The translations under genes and the position numbers were made by a program. A stretch of 25,165 bases of DNA from Nitrospirota bacterium. GTDB lineage: Bacteria > Nitrospirota > UBA9217. The stretch is taken from positions 1 through 25,165 of the forward strand of contig CAVUHW010000019.1 of assembly GCA_963741205.1 (NCBI GenBank). Direction: 5' to 3'. The notes below the pieces were generated by a model that was not told the DNA's origin, did no database searches, and saw only the letters and a program-made list of their open reading frames with translations. This document shows positions 2,492 to 25,165 of the stretch, piece after piece. How positions within the stretch are numbered: position 1 is the first letter of the stretch; each line of letters begins with the position of its first letter.

Positions 2492-3112
2492 ATGTCACGT
2501 TCAGGTGTAATAGCCGCTATCTTTATCATTACTTTCCTTTTCATGTGTCTCATTGCTTTCTTTGTTCCGGGATGGCTCGGACGAGGGACAACGTTCCTGG
2601 TCATAGCTCTGATCGCACTTGGCTTTGTCCTTGCCGCCATACTCTCGGCAGTTGTAACGAAGCAGATCAAAGCGCAACCAATTCAGCAGCCTGTCCCCGG
2701 GGAACCCGAAAAACCCGCGATAGCGGCTTCAGCAGTCGACGAGAAAGCCGTGCAGATCCTTTCGATCCTGCAAAAGAAGGGTCGTCTTATAGATTTTCTC
2801 CAGGAGGATATCAGTGGCTATCAGGACAGCCAGATCGGCGCCGCAGTGAGGAATATTCACAAGGGCTGCAGAGAGGCTCTCGCCGAATACTTTACGCTCA
2901 AGCCGGTAATGAAAGAAGCCGAGGGTGCGCAGGTGGCGGTCGAAAAAGGTTTCGATCCATCAGCTGTCCGCCTTACCGGGAATGTCGTCGGCAGTCCTCC
3001 TTTTAAAGGAAAACTTACTCACAGCGGCTGGAGGGTAATAAAAACGAGCCTGCCTCCCATTCCGCAAAATCAGGATACGAGTATCATAGAGCCGGCAGAA
3101 GTTGAACTCTAG
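2492..3112 (+). CDS. DUF2760 domain membrane protein
   Basis: Two N-terminal TM helices. AVQILSILQKKGRLIDFLQEDI, IGAAVRNIHKGC, VRLTGNVVGSPPFKGKLTHSGW and IIEPAEVEL match DUF2760. GGAGG RBS and the usual position upstream of an Hsp70 pair. Confidence 0.9.
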   Translation: MSRSGVIAAIFIITFLFMCLIAFFVPGWLGRGTTFLVIALIALGFVLAAILSAVVTKQIKAQPIQQPVPGEPEKPAIAASAVDEKAVQILSILQKKGRLIDFLQEDISGYQDSQIGAAVRNIHKGCREALAEYFTLKPVMKEAEGAQVAVEKGFDPSAVRLTGNVVGSPPFKGKLTHSGWRVIKTSLPPIPQNQDTSIIEPAEVEL

Positions 3113-3194
3113 CTTTGATCCCATGAAAGGCCTCACATTTCACGGCCTATAGAGACCTCTGTGGCAGAAATGTTTTTACATGATAGGAGATTCA

Positions 3195-5027: not shown

Positions 5028-5034
5028 ATAATTT

Positions 5035-5300
5035 CACCATAGAGGACACAAAGTTCACGGAGAAAGGCGAACTGAGGTCTCGTGCAAAGCCGCCAGACGC
5101 AAAGAAAGTCCAACAACGGCGTCTTTAGAAAGGTCCCAGTGTTTTGATGCGAAGACATTGCATCAAGCTCTTATTTTTCATTCTATTATTACGGTTTGCC
5201 ATTCTTGTGAAGCTTCGCTTACTTTGCAACTTTGCGTCTTTGCGCGAATATATTCATTGAGGAATCGCATTTCGTTTTTATCTCTGTCATCTCTGTGGTT
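5035..5300. repeat. Nested imperfect inverted repeats (REP/MITE-like) in the intergenic region
   Basis: Inner pair TCGTGCAAAGCCGCCAGACGCAAAG (5080-5104) and CTTTGCAACTTTGCGTCTTTGCGCGA (5222-5247). Looser outer pair CACCATAGAGGACACAAAG (5035-5053) and TCTCTGTCATCTCTGTGGTT (5281-5300). Confidence 0.5.
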
Positions 5301-5319
5301 TATTCTTTATGGAGTTTAA

Positions 5320-8139: not shown

Positions 8140-8717
8140 AAATCAGTTTGCGCTGCTGCTTGTTGACCTCGCTACGCTGGCTGCTCCGACTTGTGTTGCA
8201 TTGCTTCAGTTCGGCGCAAGTCTCACGAGCCTGGCTGTACTTGATCGACAATGAAAAATGCCAGCAATTCGGGATAAAACTTGGACCTACCCGACAATTT
8301 CTAAAATATATACCGTCAGGCAATCATATATTCGCCCGTTTTATGGCCGCCTTTTCTTGCCATGAGATTCCGCCGAATGAGCGGTTTGATAATATTGTTC
8401 AACCGTATTTCACGACTTTTTCCACGAAGTACGATCACGATGTTGTAGGTGTGGTCGATGACCGCGAGAATATCGAAGTTCGCAGTTTTACCAACCGGGC
8501 TCAGCCGTGAGCTTGTAGATAGATTCTGCAAATTCCAATAATTGAAACTCATGCGAAGTACAGGTGCGCTTCTGTATCTACTATTTATCAGTTGCCATGC
8601 CAACCTTGTATGTGACGGTATTGTGTAATCGGATGTTTTTATCAAAAGGACCGCTTTCTGAATATCTGAACATTGACCCCAGGGAAGTGGTTCAATTTTA
8701 GAAAATGAGGGAAAAAT

Positions 8718-8946
8718 GCGGGGGTAACTTTAGGGGTAACAAGCAAAATTGCATTGGATATTATTACATTGTTTCAATGGATTGGACAAACAATTTGATT
8801 CCCGTTGGGCCACCATTTGATAGTCTAAAGAAGTCCGATTTAGTCCATAAGCCCCTTGAAAAAGGGGCTTTTTCTGTTATTATTTTCCATCTAGGTTTCT
8901 TCGTGATCGTTGACATTTGGGGGTTACGGGTAATATCAGGGGTAAC
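8718..8946 (+). mobile_element. Integrase attachment-site remnant: tRNA/tmRNA 3' fragment flanked by arm-type repeats
   Basis: TTGATTCCCGTTGGGCCACCA (8795-8815) resembles a T-loop/acceptor/CCA end. GGGGTAAC direct repeats lie at 8721, 8733 and 8939, with variants at 8920-8934. Adjacent to an integrase fragment. Confidence 0.6.
8849..8873 (+). terminator. Hairpin / intrinsic terminator downstream of the att core
   Basis: AAGCCCCTT-GAAA-AAGGGGCTT followed by TTT. Confidence 0.55.
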
Positions 8947-8976
8947 ACGATCCAGGCAGCAACCAGTTACTCCTAC

Positions 8977-9195
8977 CGCGAGTGGCACGAAAAGTTTAAA
9001 CAGAGATGGACAGAGGTACATGCGAAAACGACAATCCGGCGGTTGGAGCTAGATGTTTTCCCCTGGCTCGGGACACGGCCTATCGGTGAGATCAAGGCCC
9101 CGGAGCTGCTCGCGGTCCTGCGCCGTGTCGAGTCAAGAGGGGCACAGGAAACGGCTCACAGGCTCAGGACCATCTGCGGGCAGGTATTCCGTTAA
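8977..9195 (+). pseudogene. P4-family tyrosine integrase fragment (core-binding domain only)
   Basis: REWHEKFKQRWTEVHAKTTIRRLELDVFPWLGTRPIGEIKAPELLAVLRRVESRGAQETAHRLRTICGQVFR is typical of P4/IntA-type integrases. The arm-binding and catalytic domains are absent. Confidence 0.88.
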
Positions 9196-9234
9196 TAGAA
9201 AGGGACTGGTCATCCAGGCCCCCTATCTTATCGC

Positions 9235-10476
9235 TTATTTACCCCGTTTATGCCACAAGGCATTAACAGGGATGGCATAGAGTTCCGGACCGAACGACAA
9301 GCTCTCGGAACCGGTATAAAATACAATGCCTCGATAAAATCGCTTGCCAGTGGTCTCGGCAAGCGCACGGAGTCCTTTGAAGTCTCGGGCAATCACTGTT
9401 GAGCTTGCCTTGACCTCGATTCCTACCAGTTTTCCCGCCCGGTCTTCCACAACGATATCCACTTCCTGGCCAGTTTGGGTTCGGAAATGAAATAATTGCG
9501 GCTTGATTGAACTCCAGGTGATCTGCTTGATCAGTTCCATGATAACGAAGTTTTCGAGCAATGGACCGATAATACCGCCCGTAGCCAATCGTTCCTTATT
9601 GGCTCCGAGCAGGTGCGACATAAGGCCGGTGTCACTCATAACGAGCTTGGATGTCTTTACCAATCGCTTTCCGAGATTCCCTGACCAGGCGGGCAGATGC
9701 TGGATCAGAAACGTGGCCTCCAGGAGCGTCATGTACCGCTTGAGAGTGCTTTGAGGCATGGCAAGGGTGCGGGACAGCTCTGAGAAATTGAGAAGCGCCG
9801 GGGCGCGCGAAGCGATAATCGCCAGGAGTCTTGGCAGGCTGGTCAACCCATCGATATTGGCAAGATCCCGGATATCCCTTTGGAGGATCGTCGTGATATA
9901 TGACTCGAACCACGCCCGGCGTCTATCTTCCTTTGTTCTGCCGACCGCTTCAGGATAACCACCATTGATGATCCTGGCATGAAGTGAAGCAAGGGATTCT
10001 TTAGGCAAAGTAACAGCGTGCAGTTTGGCCGCAAACAAGCCATCCACAAAAAGCTCTTTGATCCCTTCGAGCTCTCCCTGGGAAAACGGCCAGAGACTCA
10101 ATATCTCCATCCTGCCGGCGAGGGATTCAGACAATCGAGGCAGTAAGAGGACATTGGCGGAGCCCGTAAGCAAGAACCGTCCCGGTCGCCGGTTGCGGTC
10201 TACCTCTGCCTTAATAGCAGGGAACAGCTCAGGAGCCCTCTGCACCTCATCGATGACAACAGGGCCGTCCAATCCTGACAGGAAGCCCGCTGGATCATGC
10301 TTAACAGCGGCAAGAACGGTGGCATCGTCCAGAGTGATATAGCGGGCCGGATGGGAATGTTCGGTAATGGTCTTTACGAGGGTGCTCTTACCGGTTTGCC
10401 GGGCTCCATTCAGGAGGAGAACCGGCGTATCGGACAGGGCATCCAGCAAAAGCTGAGTGATATTTCTTTTTATCAT
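9235..10476 (-). CDS. AAA_14 ATPase with DUF4143 C-terminal domain
   Basis: Walker A GARQTGKST, Walker B IDEVQR, LLTGSAN, SESLAGR, GGYPE, and C-terminal PD-(D/E)XK-like QEVDIVVE...GIEVKAS. Confidence 0.93.
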   Translation of the reverse strand: MIKRNITQLLLDALSDTPVLLLNGARQTGKSTLVKTITEHSHPARYITLDDATVLAAVKHDPAGFLSGLDGPVVIDEVQRAPELFPAIKAEVDRNRRPGRFLLTGSANVLLLPRLSESLAGRMEILSLWPFSQGELEGIKELFVDGLFAAKLHAVTLPKESLASLHARIINGGYPEAVGRTKEDRRRAWFESYITTILQRDIRDLANIDGLTSLPRLLAIIASRAPALLNFSELSRTLAMPQSTLKRYMTLLEATFLIQHLPAWSGNLGKRLVKTSKLVMSDTGLMSHLLGANKERLATGGIIGPLLENFVIMELIKQITWSSIKPQLFHFRTQTGQEVDIVVEDRAGKLVGIEVKASSTVIARDFKGLRALAETTGKRFYRGIVFYTGSESLSFGPELYAIPVNALWHKRGK

Positions 10477-10569
10477 GGCTGAATTATAGCCATTCAGTGG
10501 TTAATTTTCAACCACAAAATGCTTAAGGATTTATGATATGTCAAGGCTAGAGGATTTCAAGCGTGAACT

Positions 10570-11124
10570 TACATCGGCTACCGGTACGTGAGCGCCCTTG
10601 CCCCCGGCGCATCGAACTCGGCGAACACGACGGTAACGGTCCCCGTGAGCTTTGCCGCGGGCACGTATTACATCGGGGTCATCGCAGACTATCAGGGTAA
10701 CATCCAGGAGTCCAATGAGACGAACAACGCCCTCGCCGGCAATCAGATCACGATAGCCAGCCCCGATTTGACAATGACGGCGGTATCGGGACCGTCGAGT
10801 GCAGGGGCCGGCGGAACGAGCACAATCGCTAACACGGTAGCGGCCTCGTCATCAGGCGGCACGGCAGGCGGATTCTATGTCGGCATCTATCTATCTCCGA
10901 CCAGCACGATCACGACCACGAACACCTTCCTGGGCTACCGGTACGTGAGCGCCCTTGCCCCCGGCGCATCAAACTCGGCGAACACGACGGTAACGGTCCC
11001 CGTGGGCTTTGCCGCAGGCACGTATTACATCGGTGCCATCGTAGACTATCAGGGTAACGTCCAGGAGTCCAATGAGACGAACAACGCCCTGGCTGGCAAT
11101 CAGATTGTGGTGAGTGGTTCATAG
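10570..11124 (+). pseudogene. 5'-truncated CARDB/Ig-like repeat protein (C-terminal fragment of a secreted protein)
   Basis: Two copies of GTYYIGxIxDYQGNxQESNETNNALA, with PDLTMTAVSGP starting the second domain. The frame begins mid-domain (YIGYRYVSAL) with no RBS or signal peptide. Confidence 0.75.
10576..11105 (+). repeat. Direct repeat, 173 bp x2, period 357 bp (CARDB domain duplication)
   Basis: 10576-10748 is nearly identical to 10933-11105. Confidence 0.9.
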
Positions 11125-11387
11125 AGAACGCGGGCTATTCAGTGGGAGACGGAGACCCAATCCATGATTGAAGCTTTTATCTCCTTAAGTTTGATGTGTT
11201 GAAGCATGATCAGGCCAAGGGGAATATCGTTCTCAGTCTCGAATTGCTGATTATTGGGGACTCGTTCTTCTCTGCGATTACTTCTCAATAGTAAACTGTT
11301 CAAGTTCGGACCTGCGGCCAGCTGAATTGCCTGTGGTAAGAGGAGTGTGTATTATGCTGAGGTTGTTTCTCTAGATTCAATAAGACG

Positions 11388-12293
11388 TTAACCGGTTCTC
11401 AGGCAAACGTTGTCGCCGTCTTCCAGGTCGCCCTTCATCAGGGGGGAATCTTTTCTGTGGTTTGCGGTCTTCTCCGTCACGGCCGCTCTGCCGTCGTTCG
11501 CGTAGCAGTAAAGACAGTTAAAAAAGCACGTATTGTAAGCCCCTACATCGAAACTGGAGACGCAGCCGCATAGTTCCCGCTGCGCTTTGTCCTTCTTTAC
11601 CTCAAGCCGGCGCCCGATGATTCTGGAGATAAGCTGATCGTCGATGCACTTCCCATGGACAATGCCAAACTCCGAAAGGTCGGCCTCTTCAGCGCACGTC
11701 TCGACCTTTATACCTTGAGCTTTTCCTATGCCGGCAAAGGCTGAAGCGACAGCGCACATATCCTCCCGGGTTACCTCCCTGGCGTTCAGGCTCGTAAGCC
11801 GCTTACGGCATTTTGCGTGGAAGTCCACGAAACTCATAACGCACTTTTCAGTATAGCCCGCCAGTTTCCCTGCCAGGGATTCGAAGGACCGGCAGTGATA
11901 TTCCCTGTCCAGCTCATTCGTGATTAGAATCGGATCGTACCGCCAGATTACCCGCTCCTTGCCGATCCGCTCAGACAGCGCGATAAAGGTCGAGATCACT
12001 TCGTCCTTGGGTGACAGATTCGGTTCGATCGTTTTGTCATACGGCGTCAGGGTGAACTGAAAGTAGTAGCTGTACTTTCTTTCGTCAAGGTCCGCGAGCT
12101 TACCTACCATGTTCGCTGGGTTCTTGGTCCAAAAGACGATGCAATCCACCGCTCCCGGCTCCAAAGAAACCTTGCTAACCTGGCGGGGGTTCATGGGGTT
12201 CCGCACCATCACGGAACCCTCTTCAATGCGTTTCAGGAACCAGTCGCTGTAAAAAGCGGGGATATCGGTTCTTCTGCTTGCGCTTATGATCAT
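11388..12293 (-). CDS. DUF1848 domain protein (Fe-S / radical-SAM-like)
   Basis: MIISASRRTDIPAFY, VFWTKNP, WRYDPI and C-terminal CGCVSSFDVGAYNTCFFNCLYCYAN. ATG at 12293 has a GGAGAAGG RBS. Confidence 0.92.
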   Translation of the reverse strand: MIISASRRTDIPAFYSDWFLKRIEEGSVMVRNPMNPRQVSKVSLEPGAVDCIVFWTKNPANMVGKLADLDERKYSYYFQFTLTPYDKTIEPNLSPKDEVISTFIALSERIGKERVIWRYDPILITNELDREYHCRSFESLAGKLAGYTEKCVMSFVDFHAKCRKRLTSLNAREVTREDMCAVASAFAGIGKAQGIKVETCAEEADLSEFGIVHGKCIDDQLISRIIGRRLEVKKDKAQRELCGCVSSFDVGAYNTCFFNCLYCYANDGRAAVTEKTANHRKDSPLMKGDLEDGDNVCLRTG

Positions 12294-12350
12294 GTATCGA
12301 CCTTCTCCATTTAAACGGGCTAACATCGAAATCGCGGCAAGGCAGCAAGG

Positions 12351-15300
12351 CTATTGCAGCGACTGCAGGTACATCGAGAGCGCCTCGATATCGTCGGCCG
12401 AAAGCTGGCTCGTCATTGCCATGCGTGTCGCGAATGACGGTGATTCCCTTGGCTTGAAGCTCCGGATTGATCTGTCTGTTTCCGGCGGCGTCAACCACGA
12501 CGAGCGGGGCGAGGTTCGATGTTCCCAACTGGTCCACTAAGCAGTCTGCCCTCGGGGTAGGCCGCGTTCGGACCGGAAACAGGCGTGGGCGGATCCAGGC
12601 TCACGAGGATCGGGCCGTTGCCGTCGCCGGCCAGACTGCCGCTGGAGTCGGCGACCGTGATCGGGACCTCCGTGGGAAGCACGACAGGCGGACCTCCCAG
12701 GAAGCTGTTCGCAACCCGCCGCTTGTGGTCGGAACGCACGGTGCGGAAGTTGAACCCCCGCTCCCCGGGCTGCAGGAGCGGGGAATCGGGCGGCAGGATG
12801 ATCTCGCGGATGGAGTGCGCGGCGCCGTGATGGAGCCAGCGCGGCACGCTGTCCCAGAACGAGCGCAGATGCTTCGTGTTCCGGCTGCTGATGTTCTGGC
12901 GCGCGCCGAGGTCCTGCGGCGGGCCGAATTTCTCGAAGATATAGTTGTTTCCGAGGCGCACAAAGACCCCGTCTCCGTCAACCGTGGTTTCGGCTACGAC
13001 CCCGGGTTCATGGAGGTTGAAGTCCTGGAAGGTGTCATCCACCACGCCGTTCGTGATCTTGTTGCCGTTATGGTGGCAGCTGGCGCAGCCGCTTCCGCCC
13101 TGGTCCACTTCCAGCGTGAAGAGCTGCCTGCCCCGCTCGATCTTCGCGGCATCCGCTGCCGACGGGAACTGCGAAAGGGGGTTTGGCAAGCGCCGGGTCT
13201 CATTCTGGGTCCAGAGGATCTGGGCAAACGCCATTTCGTAGTACCCGGTGGAGAAGGCGTCTCCCTGCAGTTCGGGCCTTCCGATGGCCGCCGAATTCTC
13301 CGCGGTCTTCTGCCTGACAAAGGCATCGCGGGCCAGGAGGCGCTCCTGGAGCGTCTCCTGCGGGAAGAGCGCCGTCTTCCGCTCCGCAAGGATGATCTCG
13401 CCGTTGCACGAGGATGCGTAGCCTACCATATCGTTGGAGAGCCCCTCGAACCACTGCGGCCAGTTGTCCGAGACATCCTTGTTCTGCGGGGCCACCTTCG
13501 GTCCGCCTACGGCATTTCCGCCGACGTTCCACTGGTTGCCGTCCTGGCGGCTCTGCCAATGGCAGAAGGCGCAGGACTTGTGGCCGTCGTCGGAATAGGA
13601 CTGGGTGAAGAACCAGCGCAGCCCCTTTTCTTCGGCCGTGGCAAAGAGCCCGGAGCCGTTGCCGGCCTTGGTCGGGTCAGGGGTCTTGTCGGTCACGCCC
13701 ACGGTCACGAATCCCTGCCGCGTGAGCTTGCCGGTCTCATCGACGGAGAGAATTGAAACGTCCTCGGTCTGCATGTTGGTCGACGTACACGGTCTTGCCG
13801 TCAGGCGACACGGCGACGCCCTGCGGCGTGACGCCGCCCGTGAACTCGAAGCCCGTCTCCGTGAGGATCCCGTCGAGCGTGGCCGGGTTCTGGTTGATGC
13901 GGAAGACTTCGACCTTGTCCGAGTGCATGTGGGTGACGAACAGGAAATCGCCCCGGACGAACATCTGCTCGGGGCCGCTTCCCTGGATGATCTTCTGGCC
14001 GGCCGTGTGGTCGTGCAGATCGAAGACCTGCCCCGGCACGGCAATCATGGACAGATCGCGTCCGAAATCGACATACCGGAAAACGAACAGGTTGGTCGCA
14101 GTGTCGAACACGTTCAGTTCGCTGCCGAGATCGTCGAAGGTCGTGGCCTGCGTCGCGTCCGACATCACGGGCGTGTAGCCGAGGGGCGAGCCGTTGTTCC
14201 TGATGGCGATGCCGTCCACGAGCTTCGGCATGCCGTGCCCGGTCTCCCGCTGGTTCAGTACGGTGTTGGTCTCCTGTCCGGAGACGAAGCCCCACTTGCC
14301 GGCGATCTTCACGTCCGTGGCCAGGCCGCCCACGGGCATCACCTTGACGAGCGTGTTCGCGTCATCGGCCACGTTGATGACGGCGATGGTGTGGCCCAGG
14401 GTGTTTGCGACATAGAGGGTATTCCCGTCAGAGGAGAGGTCCAGGTCGCGCGGATGCGAGCGCTCCAGATCGTTCGTGCCGGTCGGTATCTCCGCGATCT
14501 GCGTGAACTTCGGTCCCGGATCGATGCGGAAGGCGCGCACCTGGTTTTTGACCCGGTCGGTTGTGTACAGGCGGGTGCCGGTCTTGTTGAATCTCGCCTT
14601 TTCCGCGTAAAAGCCGAGCTTGAATTGGCCGATCACGTTGTCGGTCTTTGTGTCGATCACGGTCGCGAAATTCGCGTACTGGTTCAGGACAACGACGTAG
14701 GGCGAAGCTGAAATGGCGGGGTTGTCCGGCGAGATCGCAATGCCCATCGGACGCAGGCCCCTGTCTTTCCCGGCAGCCGGAGATCGATCCACTTGACCTG
14801 ACGGGTCGCGGTGTCCATCACCGCGACCCGCCAGTCGGGATAGCCTTCCCTGCCAGGGAGCGTGACATAGAGTTTCGCGCCGTCGGCGGTAAGCGCCAGC
14901 GAGTTCGGCTGGCTGCGGAACGGCTGCGGTACGTGCGGCCAATGCTCGCCGCCGGCTTTCACGATCGGATTATTCGGATCGATGCGGTCGCCAGCGCCCG
15001 GCGCGCCGTCGAAGTAGCCGGCCCCGAACATGATCTTGGTGAACCGCGGCATGCCCGCGCGCACTCCTGCGGCCTCGGCGCCGACGATGTCTTTCACCGG
15101 GTCGGCTGTCGGGCCGGTAATGACCTGCCCCTTTGCATCGGTCTTTACAGCAGTTGAGAAAAACCGGAGATCAAAGGGGGCCTCGGGCAAGACCGGGGCG
15201 AGGGCCACACATTTGAAGGCCGGGTCGGACAGATGCCGGTGTCCTGACGTCTGGCACCCGGTTGAAATAAGGGCGCCGATCGCGGCAAGAACGGTCAGTG

Positions 15301-15358
15301 CAAACCGCCAGCCTGACAGAACAGGAACTGTCCGAATTACGGAAAGTCTTTTTCCCAT
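12351..15358 (-). CDS. ~1000-aa secreted lipoprotein: YVTN/YncE-type beta-propeller fused to a di-heme cytochrome c peroxidase/MauG-like domain (frameshifted)
   Basis: ATG at 15358 with GAGGAGG RBS and lipobox-like ISTGC. Propeller blades include LALTADGAKLYVT, LDLSSDGNTLYVAN and VAVSPDGKTVYV. Heme motifs are CAFCH (13559-13573) and CASCH (13073-13087). C-terminus is RWLHHGAA...DTHG.TSQLSADDIEALSMYLQSLQ* (TAG at 12351). ORF pieces join across frameshifts near 14770, 13780, 12540 and 12420. Confidence 0.82.
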
Positions 15359-15601
15359 GGTTTCCTCCTCATTTCGAGATAACGAGTACAATTTGCGTTT
15401 AAAAGATTAGTATATCATTTCTGTTCCGGGGATAGTTGGTGAGCCTCGTAACTCATCGAAATAAAAAAAGCGAGAGGCCATTGTTGAGGAACGACCGCAG
15501 ATACTTTTTTAAAGGAAAGTTCTTTGTGGACGTGATGGCAAAAGCATAACTCGCTCACCACGGGGGCTGCGGACACGAGCGTGAAGGAAAGAGCCCGTTG
15601 C

Positions 15602-16969
15602 TTATTCTTTTTTGAAGTCCGAGGGGTTGATGACGTATTTTTTCAGGAGATTATACAGATCAGCCCGGTACCTCCCGGCAAGGGCCGCTGCGCTGCTTAC
15701 GTTCCCCCGGGTGAGTTCAAGGAGCCTGATGAGATATCTTTTCTCGAAGTTCTCGCGGGCTTCCTTGAGCGGTTTGATCGCTTCTTCCACGGCGCATTTT
15801 TCGAGAGGGATGAGCTCCTCGCCGATGACGTCCTGTTCGGCCATGGCCGCGGCATACTCAATCGTGTTCTGGAGTTCGCGCACGTTACCGGGCCAGTCAT
15901 GGAGCATCAGCCGCTGCATGGCGGCAGGGGTCAGGCCTTTTTTCCTTTTTTCCGTCTGTTCGGAGAATTTTTTCAGGAATGCGTCAACCAGAACGGGAAT
16001 ATCATCCCTGCGTTCACGAAGAGGCGGCAATTCGATGGGAATGACGTGGATCCGGTAATAGAGGTCCTCCCGGAACTGGCCCTGTTTGACCAGTTCTTCG
16101 ATGTTCTTGTTCGTGGCGACGATTACCCGCACATCCACGTCCACCGGTTTCTCGCTGCCCACAGGGTAAAACTGGCGCTCCTGGAGCACGCGCAGGAACG
16201 TGGCCTGGATGGAGAGAGGCATGTCGCCGATCTCGTCGAGGAATATGGTCCCCTCATGGGCCTGGACAAAGAGGCCCCTGGAGGTCCTCACTGCCCCGGT
16301 GAATGATCCCTTCTCATGGCCGAAGAGTTCGCTCTCCAGGAGCGTTTCGGGAAGGGCGGCGCAGTTGATGGCCACGAAGGGCTTGTCGCTCCTGTTGCTC
16401 GCAAGGTGGATCGCCTTCGCGATGAGCTCCTTGCCCGTGCCGCTTTCCCCCCGGACGAAGACCGTGGAATCCGTTTTTGCGACCCGGGACACGGTCTCGA
16501 GCACCGCCTGCATGGCCCCGCTTCGCGAGACGATGTTCTTGAAATCATACCGCTCCGAGAGCAACCCCTGCAACCGGTCGACCTCCGAGGCAAGCTTCCT
16601 GTTCTCCAGGGCGCGTTCCACATGCAGGATCAGCTCGCGGGCGTCGAAGGGTTTCGTAAGATAGGTGAAGGCGCCCCGCTTCATCGCATCCACGGCGCTC
16701 TCGATGCTGCCGTGGGCCGTGAGGATGATGGCCGGCATGCCGGGCGCCACGCGGCGCAGTTCCTCCATGAGCGATATCCCGTCCTGGCGCACGAGCTGAA
16801 GGTCGAGAATGGCCAGGTCAAAGGCCTGCGCCACCACGGCGGCTTTTGCCTCGTCTTCGTCCGGCGCCGTGGTGACCGCATAACCGGACGTTTCCAGCCG
16901 CATCTTCATCAGCTCCAGAAGGTTCCGGTCGTCATCAACGATCAACAGTTTTGCCGCCGTCTTCTCCAT
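15602..16969 (-). CDS. Sigma54-dependent response regulator, NtrC family (GlrR/QseF-like)
   Basis: Receiver domain (IVDDD, ILDLQL, LTAHGSI, KPF), AAA+ domain (GESGTGKE, ESELFGHEKGSFTGA, FLDEIGD, WPGNVREL) and Fis-type HTH. Confidence 0.95.
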   Translation of the reverse strand: MEKTAAKLLIVDDDRNLLELMKMRLETSGYAVTTAPDEDEAKAAVVAQAFDLAILDLQLVRQDGISLMEELRRVAPGMPAIILTAHGSIESAVDAMKRGAFTYLTKPFDARELILHVERALENRKLASEVDRLQGLLSERYDFKNIVSRSGAMQAVLETVSRVAKTDSTVFVRGESGTGKELIAKAIHLASNRSDKPFVAINCAALPETLLESELFGHEKGSFTGAVRTSRGLFVQAHEGTIFLDEIGDMPLSIQATFLRVLQERQFYPVGSEKPVDVDVRVIVATNKNIEELVKQGQFREDLYYRIHVIPIELPPLRERRDDIPVLVDAFLKKFSEQTEKRKKGLTPAAMQRLMLHDWPGNVRELQNTIEYAAAMAEQDVIGEELIPLEKCAVEEAIKPLKEARENFEKRYLIRLLELTRGNVSSAAALAGRYRADLYNLLKKYVINPSDFKKE

Positions 16970-16971
16970 CG

Positions 16972-17473
16972 CTACTTTCCGAGCCCTTTCTTCATTTCTT
17001 CGATCTCGATGTCCACCTGCTTCGCCTTCTCAAAGGCCTGCAGCACGCCGACCCATATCTTCGCCTCTTCCACCAGAGGGCTGCGGGGAAATTCCCGCTC
17101 AACACGCATGAAGTAACTCAACGCCTTTTTGTAATCCTTCTTTGGATTTGCGTAGTGGGCGCTTATCAGCCCCATGTCCATGAGCGCTTCATCTCCCGGC
17201 GGTGTTTTCGGCGAGCGGGCAAGGATGTCCTGGCTCTTCTTCATCGCGCCCTCGAAATTCCCTTTGCTGAGCAGACTCTCCACGCGCATCAGGGAGTCGC
17301 TCTGAGGACACACCGGGCATTCCGCACACTTCGGTGCATTCCGGGCACCCCTGCACTCCGGACACTCCGGGGCCCGTAGGCCGGACCGGCGCACAGCCCG
17401 CTGCGATCGCCAGGATCAGGCAGGCAACTGTAACGTAAAGGTGCTGCCGTTTCCCGCTTCGCTTTCTACCCAT
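16972..17473 (-). CDS. Lipoprotein with TPR/coiled-coil region (QseG/YfhG-like position), frameshifted near 17372
   Basis: MGRKRSGKRQHLYVTVACLILAIAAGC lipoprotein signal (ORF 17189..17473) joins ORF 16972..17394 (PECPEC...DEALMDMGLISAHYANPKKDYKKALSYF...QVDIEIEEMKK). Lies between the kinase and the regulator. Confidence 0.75.
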
Positions 17474-18853
17474 ACCGAGCCTCCATGCGCTTGAATGATG
17501 TGCTTGACGATCGCCAGCCCCAGCCCGGTTCCGTGGTGTCTGCCGGTGCCGGGGACCTGACGGAACTTGTCGAAGATCGCGGTCGCATGTTCCTTGGGAA
17601 TACCCGGCCCCGTGTCGATGACCTCAACGATAACGCCATCCTTTTCCCGCCGGGCGTTGATGCTCACTGTTCCCCCGCGGGGAGTGAATTTCAAGGCATT
17701 CCCGATCAGGTTCCGCAGGACCTGGAGCATCCGCTCCGCGTCCATAGTCAGCTGCGGCAGGTCCCGCAATTCCCTGCTGATCTTAATGCGTTTTGCTTCA
17801 GCCAGCGGCCCCATTTCCTCCACGACCCTCTCGATGAGCGGGGACAGGTCGGCCTTGCCGAAGTTGAACGCCAGCAGTCCCGATTCGAGCTTCGCCAGGT
17901 CCAGAACGGAATTGACCATCCCGATGAGCCGGTTGCTTTCCTCGGCGATGATCAGGAGCACCCTTTTCTGCTTTTCCGTGACCTCGCCGCAGCATCCCTC
18001 CAGGATCAGGTTGGTCCCCTCCTTGATGGAGGTAAGCGGCGTGCGCAGCTCGTGGGACATGAGCGCGAAGAAATCGGACTTCATCCTGTCCACTTCCTTC
18101 AGTTTGCCGCACATGGTGTTGAAGGCCTGTGGCCAGAGCCCCGATTTCCGGCGAAGAGGGCACCCTCAAATCCGCCTCAAAGACGCCGTCGGCGATGTCT
18201 TTCGTCTTTTGCTGCATTTCCGAGAGGGGACGCGTAATGCTCCTGGTGATCAGCACGGCCAGAGCGATCCCGAACAGCAGGGACACGGCGCTCACCACCA
18301 TGGCGGTGGTCCGCGCCCGCCTGCCGGCCTCGCTCAGCTTTTTCACCTTGTCGAGCATGCTCTGCTGGCTCATGGTCCGGACCTTGACCAGCTCCTCGAT
18401 CGCGGCATTGATCGCACGCTCCTTTTCTTTCGTGTACCACGTGCGGTCGTAGCTCGCGCCTGCCCTGTGGTATTCCGCCTCTTCCTTGAAGAGCGTGTTA
18501 TAGGTCACGTGGAAGTCCGCCGCCCTGTTCAAGGCATCCCTCACCGCCGGACTGACGCCCAGCATGAGCGCTTCGCTGAGATTTCGTTCAAACTCCGTCC
18601 TGGATTTAAGAAACCCCTTATAGAGCTCCCGGTCCCGCACAATGAGATACTTTTTTTCATACCGCGTCTCGGACAGGAGTTCGTCCGTCATGTCTTTCTG
18701 AAGACTGATGAGGGAATTGTCCACCAGGATGATGGAATGGGCCACATCGGTCACGCTGCCGAGCTGCGCGATGAAGCGGTAACTCATTGCCGCTGCCAGG
18801 GCCAGAAGGAAAACGTATCCCAGGATCAACCTTGAAAGGATGCTAAATCTCAC
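17416..18853 (-). CDS. Sensor histidine kinase with periplasmic domain and HAMP (GlrK/QseE-like), frameshifted near 18125
   Basis: Two TM helices and HAMP (SITRPLSEM...EIGALA) in ORF 17798..18853. H-box MSHELRTPLT, N-box NLIGNALKF, DTGPGI and GTGLGLAI lie in ORF 17416..18114. Confidence 0.92.
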
Positions 18854-19200
18854 GCTTTTCGCCTTTTCAGATTCCGGTCAAGAACAGACCGCTTCATGTT
18901 CGCCGTTTTTCAACCAGTGCGAAGGATGCTTCTTCACCTGAGCTGCAAAGTATGTATACTATACCATTTTTTTGCTTTGGCTTCACCTAATTGATCGCTT
19001 TAAAAAAACATGTCTGTCTTCAACTCGATTGCCTGCCTTTCCTTATTGCCCTGCTCAGTAATTTCGTGAGTTAGATGATGCTCCGTGAATCCCGGGGAAA
19101 GGGATTGAAGTTCTCGCGGTGTCCGCAAGTGCAAAGAGATATAAGGCCAGCCTAATACAAACGCATTCAGATTCGTTCCTGCTTTGCCCCTCTTCTTTGT

Positions 19201-19238
19201 CCTCTCCCCAGAGGTGAGAGGGTTGGGTGAGGGGGGGG
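19201..19238. repeat. REP-like palindromic element
   Basis: CCTCTCCCCAGAGGTGAGAGGGTTGGGTGAGGGGGGG resembles the widespread CCCTCTCCC-N-GGGAGAGGG-N-GGGTGAGGG intergenic repeat. Single degenerate copy. Confidence 0.45.
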
Positions 19239-19348
19239 ACTTGCCGGGATGTAACATTATTTATTTCGTTCGCATTAGTTGAATTGCTGTGAAAAACTGA
19301 AGGCATGGTGCACATGGGTTGTGAAAACTAACGGGTTTATCACCATGT

Positions 19349-19366
19349 TGTATGTAATTGTGTACA
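19349..19366. promoter_or_regulatory. Candidate enhancer (bEBP binding site) TGTA-N10-TACA
   Basis: TGTATGTAATTGTGTACA lies ~170 bp upstream of the sigma54 promoter and has the same geometry as the E. coli GlrR site TGTC-N10-GACA. Confidence 0.35.
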
Positions 19367-19533
19367 GAATTTTAACATACTGATTTATTGATCATTTTAT
19401 CATATATTGCATAATATATGGGTTATCGCTGAATAAAAATCCATACAGCACGACTATTTTCTCAGACGAAAATAAAACCCTGAATTAATAAAATACGTTT
19501 ATATATCAATAAGATAAAACTATATACTAATTC

Positions 19534-19550
19534 TGGCATTTGAGTTGCAT
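19534..19550 (+). promoter_or_regulatory. Sigma54 (-24/-12) promoter
   Basis: TGGCATTTGAGTTGCAT has GG (19535-36)-N10-GC (19547-48). It follows an AT-rich IHF-like tract and sits ~65 bp upstream of the cytochrome start codon. Confidence 0.8.
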
Positions 19551-19615
19551 ATAAATGCACAGCAGAGGGGCATGAGAACAAGACATCATTTTAGGATTTA
19601 AGGAAGGACAATACT

Positions 19616-22305
19616 ATGAAGACGGAAACAATGAAGACGGAGAATGTCAACTATTTGTGATAAACCTGATTGTGATTGGCGCAGTAGTTCTGACCTTCGC
19701 GCTTTTCGGGTGCAACAGCGGCAAAACGTGCGGACACGACGGCGGCGGGAGCGCTGATCGAGGGGCCGTCGCTCTATAACAGAGACTGCAGCGGATGTCA
19801 TGGCTCCCTTGCCACCAGCGGCAAGAAGGGGGCACGGTTCCCAGATTCAGGACGCGATTTCGCACAACTGGGGCGGCATGGGCGCCTATGCCAGCCTCAC
19901 GGCTGATCAGATCCAGGCAATTGCGACCGCCCTGCCGGCTCCGGTGACCACAACCCCTGACACGACGAACGAACGATACGCCCACCTCTCAACAACGCTC
20001 GACGGGGCTGCGCTCTATACGGCAAACTGCAGTTCCTGCCACGGCGCGCTTGCTGCGAGCGGCAAGAGCGGCGCACTGGCGGCCGCGATCCAGGCGGCTA
20101 TTACGTACAACTACGGCGGCATGGGACGGTTCTCAAACCTTACGACAGCCCAGCTCCAGGCCATTGCAGACGCTTTGGCGGCAGTGCCGGCATCGACCCC
20201 GGCTCCCGGTGGTACGTCACGAACGCTCGACGGTGCGGCTCTCTACGCCAGATACTGCCAGGGATGCCACAATCCGCTTGCCACGAGCAGGAAGACAGGG
20301 GCGACTGTGTCCAGGATCCAGGCCGGTATCAGCGGTGAACCCGGCATGAGATCTCTCTCGACCCTCTCGCAAGCGCAGCTTGATGCCATCGCTTCCGCCC
20401 TGGGAGCGCCTGCATCCGGTTCTCCGTCGTCTTCCGGCGGCACATCGACTCCGGGGGTTCGACGACATCAACAGACGGCGCAGCGCTCTATACCAGAATT
20501 GTGAAGCCTGTCATGATCCGCTGGTTGCAAGCAGGAAGGCAGGAAGGACGGCCCCCCAGATCCAGACGGCCATTTCGAACAACAAGGGCGGAATGGGCTA
20601 TCTCTCTGACGCTCACGACAGCGCAGATTGATGCCATTGCCTCCGCCCTGGCAGCGGCCCCGACTCCGGCTCCGACCGACGGCGCGGCGCTTTATACCAA
20701 CAACTGCAGTTCGTGCCACAACTCACTGGCAAATAGTACTGTGAGCGGGGCCACGGCTACCCATGATCAGCGCCGCCATCGCAAGCTATGGCGCAATGAG
20801 CTCGATATCACCTCACGCTGGCGGAGATCCAGGCGATAGCGACCGCCCTGGGAACGTCAACGCGGGGATCGGCTACCTGCACCTCCTTCACCTATTCCGG
20901 GTGGGACGCATGTCAGCCTGACGGCACGCAGACCGAACTCTATGCTCACGTACTCCGCAGGCTGCACCGGCGGAACGCCGGTCCTGTCCCAGGCTTGCAC
21001 TAAGTACCGACTTCGCCCACATCCTGCGCCTATACGTCAGCGCATGGGGCGCCTGTCAGTCTGACGGCACGCAGACCAGAACAATGGCGTCATCGTCTCC
21101 CGCCGGCTGCACCGGGACCCGTCCTGTCACAGCCTGCGCCTACGTCCCCCGACTGGATGGGGCGGCGCTTTATAACAGTAACTGCAGTACCTGTCACTAG
21201 CCCTTGCATCAAGCAAAAAGCTGGGGCGTACGGCCAGCCAGATCCAGTCCGCCATGACAAGCAACATGGGTGGAATGGGATCGCTCTCTAATCTGACGCC
21301 TGCGCAAATCGACGCCATTGCGAGCGCCCTGGCAATTAACTGCACCTCCTTCGCCTATTCCGCGTGGGGCACATGTCAGTCGACGGCGCGCAGACCGAAC
21401 TATGACGTCATCGGCGCCGCCGGCTGCACGGAGGAACGCCGGTCCTGTCGTCAGACCTGCACCTATGTCCCGCCGGTCAAGCCTGCACCTCGTTCACGTA
21501 CTCGGCCTGGGGAGCTTGCCAGTCCAACAGCACGCAGTCCAGAACGATAACGACATCATCTCCCGCCGGCTGCACCGGAGGAACGCCGGTCTTGTCACAA
21601 GCCTGCACCTATGTTCCGCCAACGCAGATATGCGGTTCCTGCCACGCCATCCCGCCGGCGACCGGCAGCACACGTACCAGTACTCGCAAGTCCTGCAGCA
21701 CTTGCCACGGCACGGCTAAAGCTCGACAGTCTCGTCGATTCGGAGCGCCATCAGCGGCGTGAGTGAAATGAGATCACTTTCTGTGCTCACGAGCGCGCAG
21801 CTTCAGGCCATTTCAACAGGGAGTACGGTCCAAGGGACGACAACGACGACTACGACTGCACCGACAGACGGAGCTGGGCTCTACGCCACGTACTGCAGCG
21901 GGTGCCATGGACCCCTTGCCACGAGCGGCCACAGAGGGGCAACGGTTGCCCAGATACAGACCGGCATCAACACGATCAGCGGAATGATGTCTCTTTCTAC
22001 GCTCACGGCGGCGCAACTCCAGGCTATCTCGGATGCGTTAAATTCAACAACACCGACGTCGACACCAGCACCGGCGACGCTGGTATGCGGCTCCTGCCAT
22101 GCCATCCCGCCGGCAACCGGCCATCACTCACTCCACGGGTCGAAAGGTGTCGTGCAGCACTTGCCACGGAACAGGTTACAGCAAGACACCGTGAACGCGG
22201 CCACGCACGCCAACGGCGTGAAAAACATCGCGACCGGGAGCACCCCGGGCTGGAACCCGACCACGGTTCCGTTCGAACGCGTGCCACGGCTCGCATAAAT
22301 GGTAA
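19616..22305 (+). CDS. ~890-aa modular multiheme cytochrome c lipoprotein (7 tandem monoheme domains, 4 TSP1-like modules, C-terminal Geobacter-type heme domain), heavily frameshifted
   Basis: AGGAAGG RBS, ATG at 19616 and signal ...VIGAVVLTFALFGC. CxxCH at 19787, 20028, 20256, 20500, 20705, 21183, 21631, 21694, 21894, 22086 and 22153, plus a probable terminal CxxxCH (SNACHGSHKW*, TAA ends 22305). Repeated DGAALYxxxCxxCH...GGMG..LTxAQIxAIAxAL units. A single gene is inferred because there are no internal RBS or signal peptides. Confidence 0.8.
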
Positions 22306-22325
22306 CTTAGTAGTCAGGCGATACA

Positions 22326-22357
22326 AAGCGCCCTGTCGCAAGACAGGCGCTCTTTTT
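22326..22357 (+). terminator. Intrinsic terminator after cytochrome gene A
   Basis: AGCGCCCTGTC-GCAA-GACAGGCGCT followed by CTTTTT. Confidence 0.7.
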
Positions 22358-22417
22358 CGGTAGTACTCGTAATCACATAGCAACGCGCCATTTTTCAGCT
22401 CGAGATACATGCCAGCT

Positions 22418-22538
22418 GATAGACGACAATACTAAACCATCCGCGAGGGTGGTGGCGGAAAACCTACAGGGTCTCCACTGAGACAGCCGGGCTGCCGAAA
22501 TATCTTTCGATATTCAGGCGCCCGGCTTTTTATTTTTT
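22418..22538 (+). ncRNA. GEMM-I (c-di-GMP-I family) riboswitch, cGAMP-selective GEMM-Ib type, copy 1, with terminator platform
   Basis: GATAGACGACAATACTAAACCATCCGCGAGGGTGG..GCGGAAAACCTACAGGGTCTCC..GAGACAGCCGGGCTGCCGAAATATC closely resembles the Geobacter Gs1761/Gm0970 aptamers. It has A (22431) at the position equivalent to Vc2 G20. Downstream GATATTCAGGCGCCCGGC plus a T-tract can pair with the aptamer 3' half. Confidence 0.93.
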
Positions 22539-22587
22539 GATTCTCGCGCAGTACACAACGCCTTTTTCAGCTCAAATACATACCACA

Positions 22588-22705
22588 GATAGACGACAAT
22601 ACTAAACCATCCGCGAGGGTGGGGCGGAAAACCTACAGGGTCTCCATGAGACAGCCGGGTTGCCGAAATATCTTTTGATATTCAGGCATCCGGCTTTTTT
22701 ATTTT
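22588..22705 (+). ncRNA. GEMM-I riboswitch, cGAMP-selective GEMM-Ib type, copy 2, with terminator platform
   Basis: Near-identical copy 170 bp downstream with the discriminator A at 22601. Followed by GATATTCAGGCATCCGGC-TTTTTTATTTT. Confidence 0.93.
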
Positions 22706-22984
22706 CAAATGCTCTCGCTGAAAAAGCGAGCAAGGAGGTGACGCCGACCATGGCACGGAACGCGAGATGGTTGCTCTGTTATAAAAAACCCCCGGCTCCC
22801 GCCGGTGGCGTAGACACACAGGCAACCCTGTTTCACAAAAACACCATCACGAACAGTTTACGAACGTTATATCCTGACGAGAGCATTTTAAAAACAAGAG
22901 CAAATTGCTGGAGCAATACATTCAGAAGGCGGCAGCACCCGTGCCCGAAGGGACACAAGCCCAAATCAAAAAGGAGATTCAATA

Positions 22985-24962
22985 ATGAGGAAAAACATTC
23001 TCACCCTTCTCATGGTATGTGCAGCGATGATGAGTTTCATGATTGCCGGCTGCAGTTCAAAAGATTCGTCGAACTCGCCGGTCGCATCTAATGCATCCAA
23101 AGCAACGGTATTCGGTGTCGCATCACTGGACACGACGGCTAGCGGAACTGTTTCCGTGAAGGATTCTTCTGTGCCGGCGCAGGAAAAGACGGCAGCCATC
23201 AGCAGCAATGGAGATTACTCTGTTGCCGTGAGCGGGCTCAAGCCGCCTTTCCTTCTCAAGGCTGAAGGGATTGACCAGGCAGGAAACAGCCAGACGCTGT
23301 ATTCTGTTTCGAAAAACGGCGGCCGGGCCAACATCAACCCGATCTCGGACACGGCAGTAGCCGCGTCAGCGAATGATAATACCGATCGGAGCGCACTCTA
23401 CATCATGCGGTCCAGTGAAGATGATCACCGCAGGACCGCGGACAATTTTGAAAGGCTCATCTACCGCCTGCGCACCGTGCTGGCGCCTCTGTTTGAGCTG
23501 TACCATATTTCGGGGAACGCGGTCTACGGCGATGACGATGACGAGATGATGATAACAGCGGACTTCGCGCAATGCTCCATGACGTGCGGTTTGTCGTGAA
23601 CGACCGGAAGGGTAACCGTAACGAACAGGCTGACCGGCGGCATTATCTTTTCAGGGCGCTCAATGATCTCGCTTCGGGAACCTTCTATCCGGAGAACATG
23701 CCTGCCGGGCCCGGGGGATCGACTGCCTGCACCTACACCTATGACGCGTGGAGTGCATGCCAGTCAAACGGAACCCAGACCAGGAACCTCCTGACCACGT
23801 CTCCCGCGGGCTGCACCGGGACTCCGGTCCTGTCGCAGGCCTGCACCTTGTCCGCCTACTCCAACGGCCTGCACCTACACCTATGGTGCATGGGGCACTT
23901 GTCTGTCAAGCGGAACGCAGCTCAGGAGCCTCCTGACATCGACTCCCGCAGGCTGCACAGGCACGCCTGTCCTGACACAGAACTGCACACCGCCGGCGCC
24001 GGCCTGCGACACCTACAACTACTCCGCGTGGGGCGCATGCGTGAACAACACGCAGACCAGAACGGTGACATCATTGTCCCCCGCCGGCTGTACAGGGACG
24101 CCCACAACAGCGTCGATCCTGACACAGGCCTGCACCCCGACGCCGCCGGCCTGCACCACCTACAACTACTCCGCATGGAGCGCATGCAGTGAACAACTCG
24201 CAGACCAGAACGGTGACATCATTGTCCCCCGCCGGCTGCACAGGGACGCCCACAACAGCGTCGATCCTGACACAGGCCTGCACCCCACCGCCGCCGGCCT
24301 GCACCACCTACAACTACTCCGCGTGGAGCGCATGCCAGTCAACAACTCGCAGACCAGAACGGTGACATCATTGTCCCCCGCCGGCTGTACAGGGACGCAC
24401 AACAGCGTCGATCCTGACACAGGCCTGCACCCCGCCGCCGCCGGCCTGCACCACCTACAACTACTCCGCATGGGGCCGTGCCAGTCGAACAACACGCAGA
24501 CCAGAACGGTGACATCATTGTCCCCCGCCGGCTGTACAGGGACGCCCACAACAGCGTCGATCCTGACACAGGCCTGCACCCCGCCGCCGCCGGCCTGCAC
24601 CACCTACAACTACTCCGCGTGGAGCGCATGCGTGAACAACTCGCAGACCAGAACGGTGACATCATTGTCCCCCGCCGGCTGTGTAGGGACGCCCACAACA
24701 CGTCGATCCTGTCACAGTCCTGCACCTCGCCGACGCCGGTCTGCGGCTCCTGCCACGCCATCCCGCCGGCGAGTGGCCAGCACGATTTCCACGTGAACTC
24801 GAAGGGTACGAGTGCAGCAGATGCCACGGCACGGGCTACAGCTCAACTGCTGTGAATACGGCAACGCACATGAACGGCGTGGTAAACATCGTAAACACAT
24901 TGAACTACAACGCGTCTACGAGCTCCTGCTCTCCCGGGTGCCACGGCACGCGGACCTGGTAG
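22985..24962 (+). CDS. ~660-aa lipoprotein: N-terminal beta-sandwich-like domain, 7 TSP1-like Cys/Trp repeats and C-terminal cytochrome c domain (2 CxxCH + CxxxCH), frameshifted
   Basis: AAGGAG RBS and lipobox MIAGC. GTVSVKDS..GDYSVAVSGLKPPFLLKA..ANINPISD resembles a carboxypeptidase-regulatory-like lipoprotein domain. Repeats start at 23728, 23870, 24005, 24152, 24300, 24447 and 24596. Heme motifs are CGSCH (24742), CSRCH (24813) and CSPGCHGTRTW* (24927-24962). Confidence 0.8.
24005..24723 (+). repeat. Coding tandem repeat, five near-identical ~147-150 bp units
   Basis: TACAACTACTCC recurs at 24014, 24161, 24309, 24456 and 24605. The unit encodes CTTYNYSAWSACxNNxQTRTVTSLSPAGCTGTPTTASILTQACTPPPPA. 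Confidence 0.95.
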
Positions 24963-25005
24963 GTTGTAGCGAGGTAGTACTGACTCAGAACATCTCCAAC
25001 CATCC

Positions 25006-25034
25006 AAGGGCCTGCTCACGCAGGCCCTTTTTTT
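25006..25034 (+). terminator. Intrinsic terminator after cytochrome gene B
   Basis: AAGGGCCTGC-TCAC-GCAGGCCCTT followed by TTTTT. Confidence 0.9.
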
Positions 25035-25165
25035 GTGTGCCGAGCATGCGCACTCACTTGGAGGTGAAAGTCCTCTACCCAGCCCGATGAAGACGATGAA
25101 TTGGCAAAGTGCAGGGCATCGTCCTTGTTTGCGGGGTGGACGTGAGCATAACCTACCCTGAACCG
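25035..25165 (+). mobile_element. 5' end of a group IIC intron (runs off the window)
   Basis: Starts GTGTG (GUGYG consensus) immediately after the terminator T-tract. GTGTGCCGAGCATG...GAGGTGAAAGTCCTC parallels the class C intron 5' end GTGTGCCCGGCATGGG...GGGTGAGAGTCCC. Confidence 0.82.

Follow-up and report, generated by a model that had tools for sequence, protein, structure and literature searches.

PgcA (GSU1761) of Geobacter sulfurreducens, one of the "microbial heme-tethered redox strings", is a lipoprotein that joins a non-heme domain to tethered monoheme domains and reduces Fe(III) oxide (PMC11520253). The same source shows that these domains tumble independently of each other, on Pro/Thr tethers over 18 nm, and that iron oxide is bound and reduced by the terminal one alone. 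The gene is driven by a GEMM-Ib riboswitch for cyclic GMP-AMP (cGAMP), and homologues with one to six hemes are reported (PMC5732950), as are homologues with extra mono- and multiheme domains (PMC10570954). Here, we describe two neighbouring genes, A and B, on a 25,165-nucleotide contig (the window; CAVUHW010000019.1) from the assembly GCA_963741205.1 of a Nitrospirota bacterium (UBA9217). Both genes are assembled from PgcA parts. We read them, with a probability of roughly 0.6, as PgcA-type tethered-heme lipoproteins for electron exchange outside the cell, B being an anchored arm with a heme tip. The family is already known, and the new element is a single part, a four-cysteine repeat with a predicted thrombospondin type-1-like fold, serving as a stalk.

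Longer PgcA homologues of the Geobacteraceae, such as P0231 (Geotalea daltonii), L053 (Geobacter argillaceus) and L093 (Citrifermentans bremense), consist of the non-heme domain, a variable number of monoheme domains (hereafter beads) and a C-terminal CxxxxCH/CxxCH triheme module (hereafter tip) like that of A and B. The tip is common at the end of such homologues, and loci of this layout are common behind single or tandem aptamers of the A20 type described below. Since many of them carry both, neither the tip nor the tandem riboswitch of B is special. These homologues have no thrombospondin-like repeat and nearly always keep an aspartate pair that is missing in B. The OmcS and OmcZ filaments and the decahemes MtrC and OmcA are likewise extracellular c-type cytochromes, and omcS is also GEMM-Ib regulated. 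They are close-packed heme chains, however, and none was among the PDB sequence matches of A or B. A kinship with OmcS, OmcZ or MtrC was rejected for this reason, the Pfam MtrC domain reaching only an E-value of ~0.02. The original prediction, made from the sequence alone, had not recognised the architecture among these proteins. It missed the kinship with PgcA, and the proposed "new system" consists of PgcA-type strings, as indicated by sequence and structure matches to PgcA domains.

Results

Both genes are spread over several frames in the assembly. Their modules were located by three-frame translation, and the module order was resolved with hidden Markov models (HMMs) built from homologues and then refined (Table 1). 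This bore out the prediction of two neighbouring lipoproteins built from shared modules, A with eleven CxxCH motifs and one CxxxCH, and B with a repeat stalk ending in three heme motifs. Contigs of the same assembly (G000) are labelled C9, C21, C30, C32 and so on, the window being C19.

Gene B encodes a lipoprotein-type signal peptide (lipobox IAGC, Cys at 23051, a residue almost invariant in the homologue alignment A1), followed by the PgcA-type non-heme domain, seven Cys-repeats and the triheme tip (CGSCH at 24742, CSRCH at 24813, CSPGCH at 24927). It shares with PgcA the lipoprotein signal, which is also present in A, the non-heme domain with an NM-P motif at its end, and an A20-type GEMM-I riboswitch with a terminator upstream. 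In contrast to PgcA, B has no bead between anchor and tip, carries seven repeats, predicted to be folded, where PgcA has unstructured Pro/Thr linkers, and ends in a triheme tip instead of monoheme domain III. An intact homologue of 652 amino acids (P0001) has the same layout and is 63% identical over the N-terminal 180 residues.

The N-terminal frame of B matched the PDB entries 9I0D/9I0E, titled PgcA non-heme domain, with an E-value of 1.5e-20. A model of the homologue P0025 superimposed on 9I0E with Z 23.8 and a root-mean-square deviation of 2.5 over 185 residues (runner-up Z 7.5), and Foldseek matched a B-type non-heme domain to that of PgcA at E 3e-16. Sequence and models together identify the N-terminus of B as a homologue of this domain. 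The wild-type chain 9I0E begins only at residue 68, the D208A/D212A chain 9I0D has 17 further residues in front, and the difference in length is wholly N-terminal. This would be consistent with a self-cleavage of PgcA at Gly67-Ala68, driven by Asp208 and Asp212, which would release the protein from its lipid. Alternatively, the two entries could derive from different constructs. Our literature search, which left subscription journals mostly uncovered, found nothing on the 9I0D/9I0E work or on self-cleavage of PgcA.

In B, Arg and His occupy the positions of Asp208 and Asp212, and the Gly-Ala-Pro is absent. We compared 195 non-heme domains, which are top hits and not a random sample. The Asp pair is complete in 79 of 83 proteins without repeats (two of the remaining four being fragments), in 15 of 20 proteins with heme before the repeats, and in none of the 92 in which the stalk comes first. 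Gly67 is found in all 92 ungapped rows that keep the Asp pair, versus 18 of the 72 others. Because B has lost the equivalents of all three residues, it probably stays anchored to its lipid.

The tip has three invariant His beyond those of the heme motifs in the alignment, which suggest bis-His hemes. Its resemblance to TIGR01904 (curated cut-off 27) varies among proteins, with scores of 40.8 for the intact homologue P0002, 47.2 for the intact A paralogue on C32 and 17.7 for the window fragment, whereas P0001 gave no match.

Gene A also begins with a lipoprotein-type signal peptide (lipobox LFGC, Cys at 19711), and its first bead starts ~16 residues past the lipobox. Five monoheme domains are followed by two repeats, one monoheme domain, two further repeats, a partial triheme module running into a monoheme-type helix, one more monoheme domain and the full triheme module. 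In total, the HMMs recognised seven motif-bearing monoheme domains, four Cys-repeats, and a partial and a full triheme module. The CxxCH motifs start at 19787, 20028, 20256, 20500, 20705, 21183, 21631, 21694, 21894, 22086 and 22153, and the CxxxCH near 22279 is clipped by a frameshift. The beads matched PgcA domain I (8QJ6, E 3.9e-16), with the Met ligand of its GGMG motif aligned, and also domain II (8QJG). Judged by these alignments, they would be separate His/Met monoheme domains of the PgcA domain I/II type on Pro/Thr linkers, and A a string of beads rather than a close-packed multiheme conductor. Unlike PgcA, A has seven beads and no non-heme domain, for which neither A nor its intact paralogue on C32 gave an HMM match. 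The surface exposure of A is doubtful for this reason.

The C32 paralogue has 847 residues, ten beads and a triheme tip, and no repeats. Including this one, at least five more A-type bead strings occur in the assembly besides A, all without the PgcA non-heme domain and with 3 to 13 monoheme domains. Long strings like these are also found in Methanoperedens, Sideroxydans and Gammaproteobacteria records. A metagenome scan for A-type genes returned nine loci, of which one was relevant (L112, with 13 beads and 0 repeats).

The repeat shared by A and B is ~46 residues long, with ~41 residues from Cys to Cys. Among 510 copies, 465 have the four Cys, 456 the aromatic-x-x-Trp motif, and none WxxW. Thr and Ser make up 34% of the residues, and each repeat has an average net charge near +0.5. 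Two repeats were modelled from the frame in the window itself (predicted local distance difference test, pLDDT, 86.7; predicted template modelling score, pTM, 0.49), and the model matched 21 chains at Z ≥2, and 18 of the 19 listed entries were thrombospondin type-1 repeats (TSRs) or pleiotrophin/midkine. All four Cys align with those of the pleiotrophin C-domain (E 0.04). The only Pfam family found on the repeats was the pleiotrophin/midkine C-domain (PF01091), mostly under the cut-off, as was the case in the window. An Atlas search with the stalk gave leads under 0.9 only, pointing towards TSP1 clusters. Each score alone is weak, but the hit list is uniform, and we therefore regard the repeat as likely to fold like a minimal thrombospondin type-1/pleiotrophin domain.

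Like the pleiotrophin/midkine C-domain and the TSRs of Toxoplasma MIC2, semaphorin-5A and properdin, the repeat would be an elongated, three-stranded module. It has the aromatic-x-x-Trp followed by an Arg strand in common with the TSR fold group. In contrast to TSRs, it is near-neutral, rich in Thr/Ser and ~41 residues from Cys to Cys, with two predicted disulfides. The six Cys and the WxxW ladder of canonical TSR sequences are missing. The TSP1-like modules of the original prediction thus hold at the level of the modelled fold, and not as members of a TSP1 sequence family. DsbA-like and VKOR genes, both present in the genome, could form the stalk disulfides, while a search for DsbB in this genome, which is 84% complete, found none. 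No paper on the four-Cys repeat or on a thrombospondin-containing cytochrome was found in the literature searched, with subscription journals mostly uncovered and supplements (e.g., PMC10570954 Fig. S1) outside the scope. The word "thrombospondin" is absent from the main text of PMC10570954, and the main text of PMC11492766 is likewise without a thrombospondin-cytochrome term.

The repeat is widespread among relatives. A stalk-plus-tip query retrieved 1086 proteins among 8000 scored candidates, and the nearest named records are Nitrospirota. Of 123 proteins that were classified (the 120 best hits and three relatives), 38 have the layout of B, 19 a monoheme end, and 13 repeats without a PgcA domain. 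The repeat is present in 18 of 64 genomes of the family and also in Myxococcales and Anaeromyxobacter records. Across a large Nitrospirota/Myxococcota subfamily, it stands in for the linkers and heme beads of PgcA. Six of eleven further repeat loci have A20 aptamers upstream.

Variation is also seen around the repeat. A second type of tip, an unnamed monoheme domain of ~65 residues, takes the place of the triheme module in several stalk proteins (L020, L021, L022 and L023). The repeat is further found in the heme-free proteins P0017, P0019, P0032, P0077, P0092, P0099, P0101, P0107, P0114 and P0121. Because such hosts are heme-free and some have cohesin, Ig-like or beta-helix domains, the repeat appears to be a mobile bacterial surface module.

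In none of the examined relatives do A-type and B-type genes lie side by side, and the A paralogues on C30 and C32 have an aptamer downstream and no B. The pair is a local arrangement. A dedicated two-gene apparatus, as originally proposed, has no counterpart in these relatives, and a new two-gene system was rejected because the pair has not been seen outside the assembly.

The two genes differ in their control elements. The sigma54-type motif preceding A is the sole one in the window (chance 0.12; present in 12 of 100 shuffles). The A paralogues on C9, C21, C30 and C32 are preceded by the same motif, in agreement with the sigma54 promoter predicted originally. The divergent sigma54-dependent regulator encoded nearby is a candidate activator of this promoter, and a copy of it also adjoins the C30 paralogue.

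Ahead of B, the predicted terminator and two riboswitches were recovered, the latter as GEMM-I aptamers of the A20 type. The aptamers lie at 22422-22500 (E 6e-7) and 22592-22668 (E 3e-10), the second alone passing the gathering score. The two riboswitch units form a tandem duplication (89% identical), each aptamer being followed by a terminator hairpin (z -4.8). In both aptamers, A replaces the first G of the Rfam consensus GGC-AAA, a site which we take to be position 20 in Vc2 numbering. Their 5' part is identical to that of Geobacteraceae aptamers upstream of PgcA-type genes. A20 is described as the determinant of cGAMP selectivity in Gmet_0970 (PMC6456294).

Three GGDEF proteins of this genome have Ser at the Hypr position, two with Ser/GGEEF and one with Ser/GGDDF. 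The best PDB match of a Ser/GGEEF protein is 6D9M, a response-regulator GGDEF fused to lysozyme, which we take to be the structure of GacA. The Ser/GGEEF type, which is conserved in relatives with A20 riboswitches, occurs in four of the five relatives searched, with no Ser/GGDE[FY] among the pattern matches. In GacA, however, Ser/GGEEF is inactive, and the natural Ser/Thr enzymes carry GGDE[F/Y] (PMC6456294). A Ser-type GGDEF pair considered as cGAMP synthases was withdrawn on account of that inactivity.

Tandem A20 riboswitches also precede the gene of another secreted protein, in which two or three repeats look Ig-like (L031, that is G000:C36:26785-29500, and L025:766-3598). The C-terminal multiheme domain of this protein differs between the present genome and G007, which is another swap of tips.

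The frameshifts in A and B are most likely assembly errors, as had been supposed. Homologues are intact, contigs of related organisms have one-base insertions at three frame breaks of the window (19837, 23655, 24801), and the neighbouring kinase is split in C19 and C21 alike. Positions 8331-25165 are 90% identical to C21 over 17 kb, and the first 4.7 kb of the window are 95% identical to C50. The window seems to represent a second haplotype or strain of the C50/C21 region that was binned together with the first. The middle of A (~20860-21830) contains many errors and seems to have been cross-polished with another copy from the assembly. Because the C21 copy of A blends bead-type and repeat-type sequence at these positions, the module order and heme count in the middle of A are unsure, and the true heme count may be off by one or two. 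The stretch is held by none of the public sequencing runs (best share 0.07). Contigs from RNA libraries of relatives cover parts of both genes, by which transcription is not shown.

Other genes of the window include, on the reverse strand (12491-15391), a frameshifted gene in which a large beta-propeller and a di-heme cytochrome c peroxidase-like domain are fused, and, on the forward strand (2492-8139), a DUF2760 gene ahead of two Hsp70-like genes, of which the second carries DUF3731. Between 8254 and 11124 lie an AAA/DUF4143 ATPase, a small CARDB-repeat gene and, by eye, an integrase-like remnant near 8917-9195, a region nearly identical in C21.

Table 1. Coordinates of genes, modules and control elements; positions refer to the window unless another contig or locus is named.
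Feature	Position	Strand	Basis
Divergent HAMP histidine kinase, small TPR protein and sigma54-dependent (NtrC/GlrR-type) response regulator	15602..18853	-	Domain searches
Sigma54-type -24/-12 promoter motif of A	19534..19549	+	Sole match in window; recurs upstream of paralogues
Gene A, frameshifted in assembly	19616..22305	+	Three-frame translation, module HMMs
TSR-like four-Cys repeats 1-2 of A	20878..21131	+	Repeat HMM matches in pieces
TSR-like repeats 3-4 of A	21340..21606	+	Module HMMs; repeat 4 intact, 21484-21606
C-terminal triheme module of A (CxxCH, CxxCH, CxxxCH; TIGR01904-like)	22086..22302	+	Translation, HMMs, intact homologues
Terminator-like hairpin 3' of A	22329..22357	+	Terminator scan
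GEMM-I riboswitch 1 (A20 type) with overlapping intrinsic terminator	22422..22535	+	Aptamer and hairpin searches
GEMM-I riboswitch 2 (A20 type) with overlapping intrinsic terminator	22592..22704	+	Aptamer and hairpin searches
Gene B, frameshifted in assembly	22985..24962	+	Three-frame translation, HMMs, PDB sequence matches, intact homologue P0001
PgcA-type non-heme domain of B, without Gly67/Asp208/Asp212 equivalents	23060..23715	+	Alignment, structure comparison, sequence match
Stalk of seven four-Cys repeats, predicted TSR/pleiotrophin-like	23728..24712	+	HMMs, models, fold matches
C-terminal triheme module of B	24742..24959	+	Translation, HMMs, alignment
Intrinsic terminator 3' of B	25006..25039	+	Terminator scan
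Further A-type strings	C9:31749-33766, C30:6062-6940, C32:9083-11482, C43:9717-12341, C21:46087-48702		HMM
Ser-type GGDEF proteins	L121:1136-2326, L122:1303-2445, G000:C20 near 101200		GGEEF or GGDDF motifs

Discussion

The two proteins fit extracellular electron transfer under the control of A20-type GEMM-I riboswitches, as was originally suggested. Loaded with heme, A would be a lipid-anchored string of His/Met beads with a triheme tip, passing electrons by tethered diffusion as PgcA does. In B, the beads and Pro/Thr linkers would have been exchanged for seven disulfide-bonded thrombospondin-like modules, yielding an arm whose tip would be charged on contact with a surface donor, which may be an A-type string or a porin-cytochrome conduit, and discharged at a distance of up to ~30 nm, on a mineral or some other acceptor. 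This reach is an estimate from the dimensions of TSRs, by which seven extended modules would measure ~30 nm. Set against an electron hopping limit of 1.5 nm (cited in PMC11520253), a stalk of such length, which has no hemes and cannot conduct, requires a tip that travels between the two. Gene A would be switched on by the sigma54 activator, and B by relief of the two terminators with a cyclic dinucleotide bound, most likely 3',3'-cGAMP. As to possible partners, the genome contains 43 reading frames with at least four CxxCH motifs. Candidates for the expected porin-cytochrome genes lie downstream of the C32 paralogue, where a porin-like beta-barrel gene is followed by two pentaheme lipoproteins. 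This cluster (L026:1104-3530) resembles a porin-cytochrome conduit and has no NCBIfam name.

More speculatively, a clade of PgcA relatives could have turned a self-releasing, floppy shuttle into a permanently anchored redox arm. The autoproteolytic Asp pair would have been lost and a minimal TSR spacer adopted, with the reach set by the number of copies (2 to 10 seen) and the stiffness perhaps made redox-dependent by the disulfides. The arm would be placed under cGAMP riboswitch control, with cGAMP perhaps supplied by a Ser/GGEEF or Ser/GGDDF cyclase that counts as inactive by the present rules. We consider this scenario rather unlikely in its entirety.

Several observations weigh against the picture of an anchored, cGAMP-controlled arm. 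The self-cleavage of PgcA is our own reading of two PDB entries. The loss of the Asp pair is essentially confined to one clade (73 rows, SH-aLRT branch support 99), in a tree that omitted 26 of the 195 rows (2 fragments, 24 short) and left the trait columns in, and the co-variation of Asp and Gly has no statistical support (two independent pairs, p 1). The fold matches of the repeat to TSRs have low Z-scores, the best being 3.6. Foldseek with the repeat model gave the TSR-like pattern again, but no match at E ≤0.001, and the TSP1 Pfam families (PF00090/PF19028/PF19030) did not match the repeats. The pTM of the two-repeat model leaves a rigid stalk unsupported. The triheme tip has no solved relative, and its model is poor, with pLDDT <50 in parts. 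Finally, a GacA-like Hypr synthase, sought as part of the original prediction, did not emerge, since none of the ~19 GGDEF loci (23 HMM segments) of the incomplete genome encodes a Ser/GGDE[FY] cyclase.

For want of such a cyclase, the case for cGAMP control has a gap: the synthase may be missing from the assembly, the rule may have exceptions, or the ligand may be another one. The riboswitches could sense cyclic di-GMP, or cGAMP from an unrecognised enzyme outside the Geobacter GacA pathway, as might be expected from three Ser-type GGDEF proteins without GGDE[FY] and from the recurrence of Ser/GGEEF among relatives. Yet the Geobacteraceae-like 5' part of the aptamers, the reported selectivity of A20, the match to 6D9M and the incompleteness of the genome all speak for the known pathway, and we think such a departure improbable. 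It is a little less probable still that the repeats of A, and with them the pair, are partly products of the assembly, A being in reality a plain bead string or another mosaic. The similarity to C21, the blended C21 copy of A, the lack of any repeat among the 120 best hits to an A paralogue, and the failure to confirm the repeats of A in any relative are in line with this, as is the finding that none of the 11 further repeat loci lacks the non-heme domain. On the other hand, the A repeats, one of which is intact, share only ~70% DNA identity with those of B, and the assembly holds no other donor locus, so that they are probably real. In addition, beads and repeats alternate in the intact proteins P0024, P0047 and P0065.

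The location and the primary role of the proteins can also be read differently. Eukaryotic TSRs are adhesive, and B could be first of all an adhesin, with a Thr/Ser-rich stalk binding minerals, matrix or partner cells and a heme tip in a secondary redox or sensory role. The 13 proteins that carry the repeat without a PgcA domain, several of them lacking any CxxCH and having cohesin, Ig-like or beta-helix domains, would suit such a function. However, the near-neutral repeats miss the basic, heparin-binding face of pleiotrophin as well as WxxW, and in PgcA the Thr-rich linkers gave no oxide binding, which was seen with the terminal heme domain alone (PMC11520253). Adhesion as the main function is, in our view, quite improbable. 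A periplasmic position of A, and perhaps of B, is a possibility to which we give more weight, although we doubt it. The lipid-anchored bead string would then relay electrons across the periplasm to a porin-cytochrome complex, and a cluster resembling one follows directly on the C32 paralogue. The non-heme domain, which Fernandes et al. termed a secretion domain (PMC10570954), is missing from A and its paralogues, and PgcA trapped in the periplasm acts as a periplasmic carrier (bioRxiv 2022.08.12.503762). But the export role of this domain is assigned rather than demonstrated in PMC10570954, B retains the domain, and some proteins with the repeat also carry domains that are usually extracellular. 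We therefore keep to PgcA-type lipoproteins acting outside the cell as the preferred reading.

While the locus itself is poorly assembled, the variant looks real, widespread and apparently undescribed. It brings uncultured Nitrospirota from sediments and soils into the range of PgcA-type electron transfer and of A20 riboswitch control, and adds a likely bacterial member to a fold known mainly from animals and apicomplexans. The role of the PgcA non-heme domain becomes a testable prediction. PgcA is the one well-studied case of electron transfer by tethered diffusion, and its relatives offer a natural series with swapped linker, stalk length and tip, in which the influence of reach and stiffness on the rate of mineral reduction could be tested. 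A heme tip on a folded stalk suggests an electron carrier held at a set reach from the cell surface.

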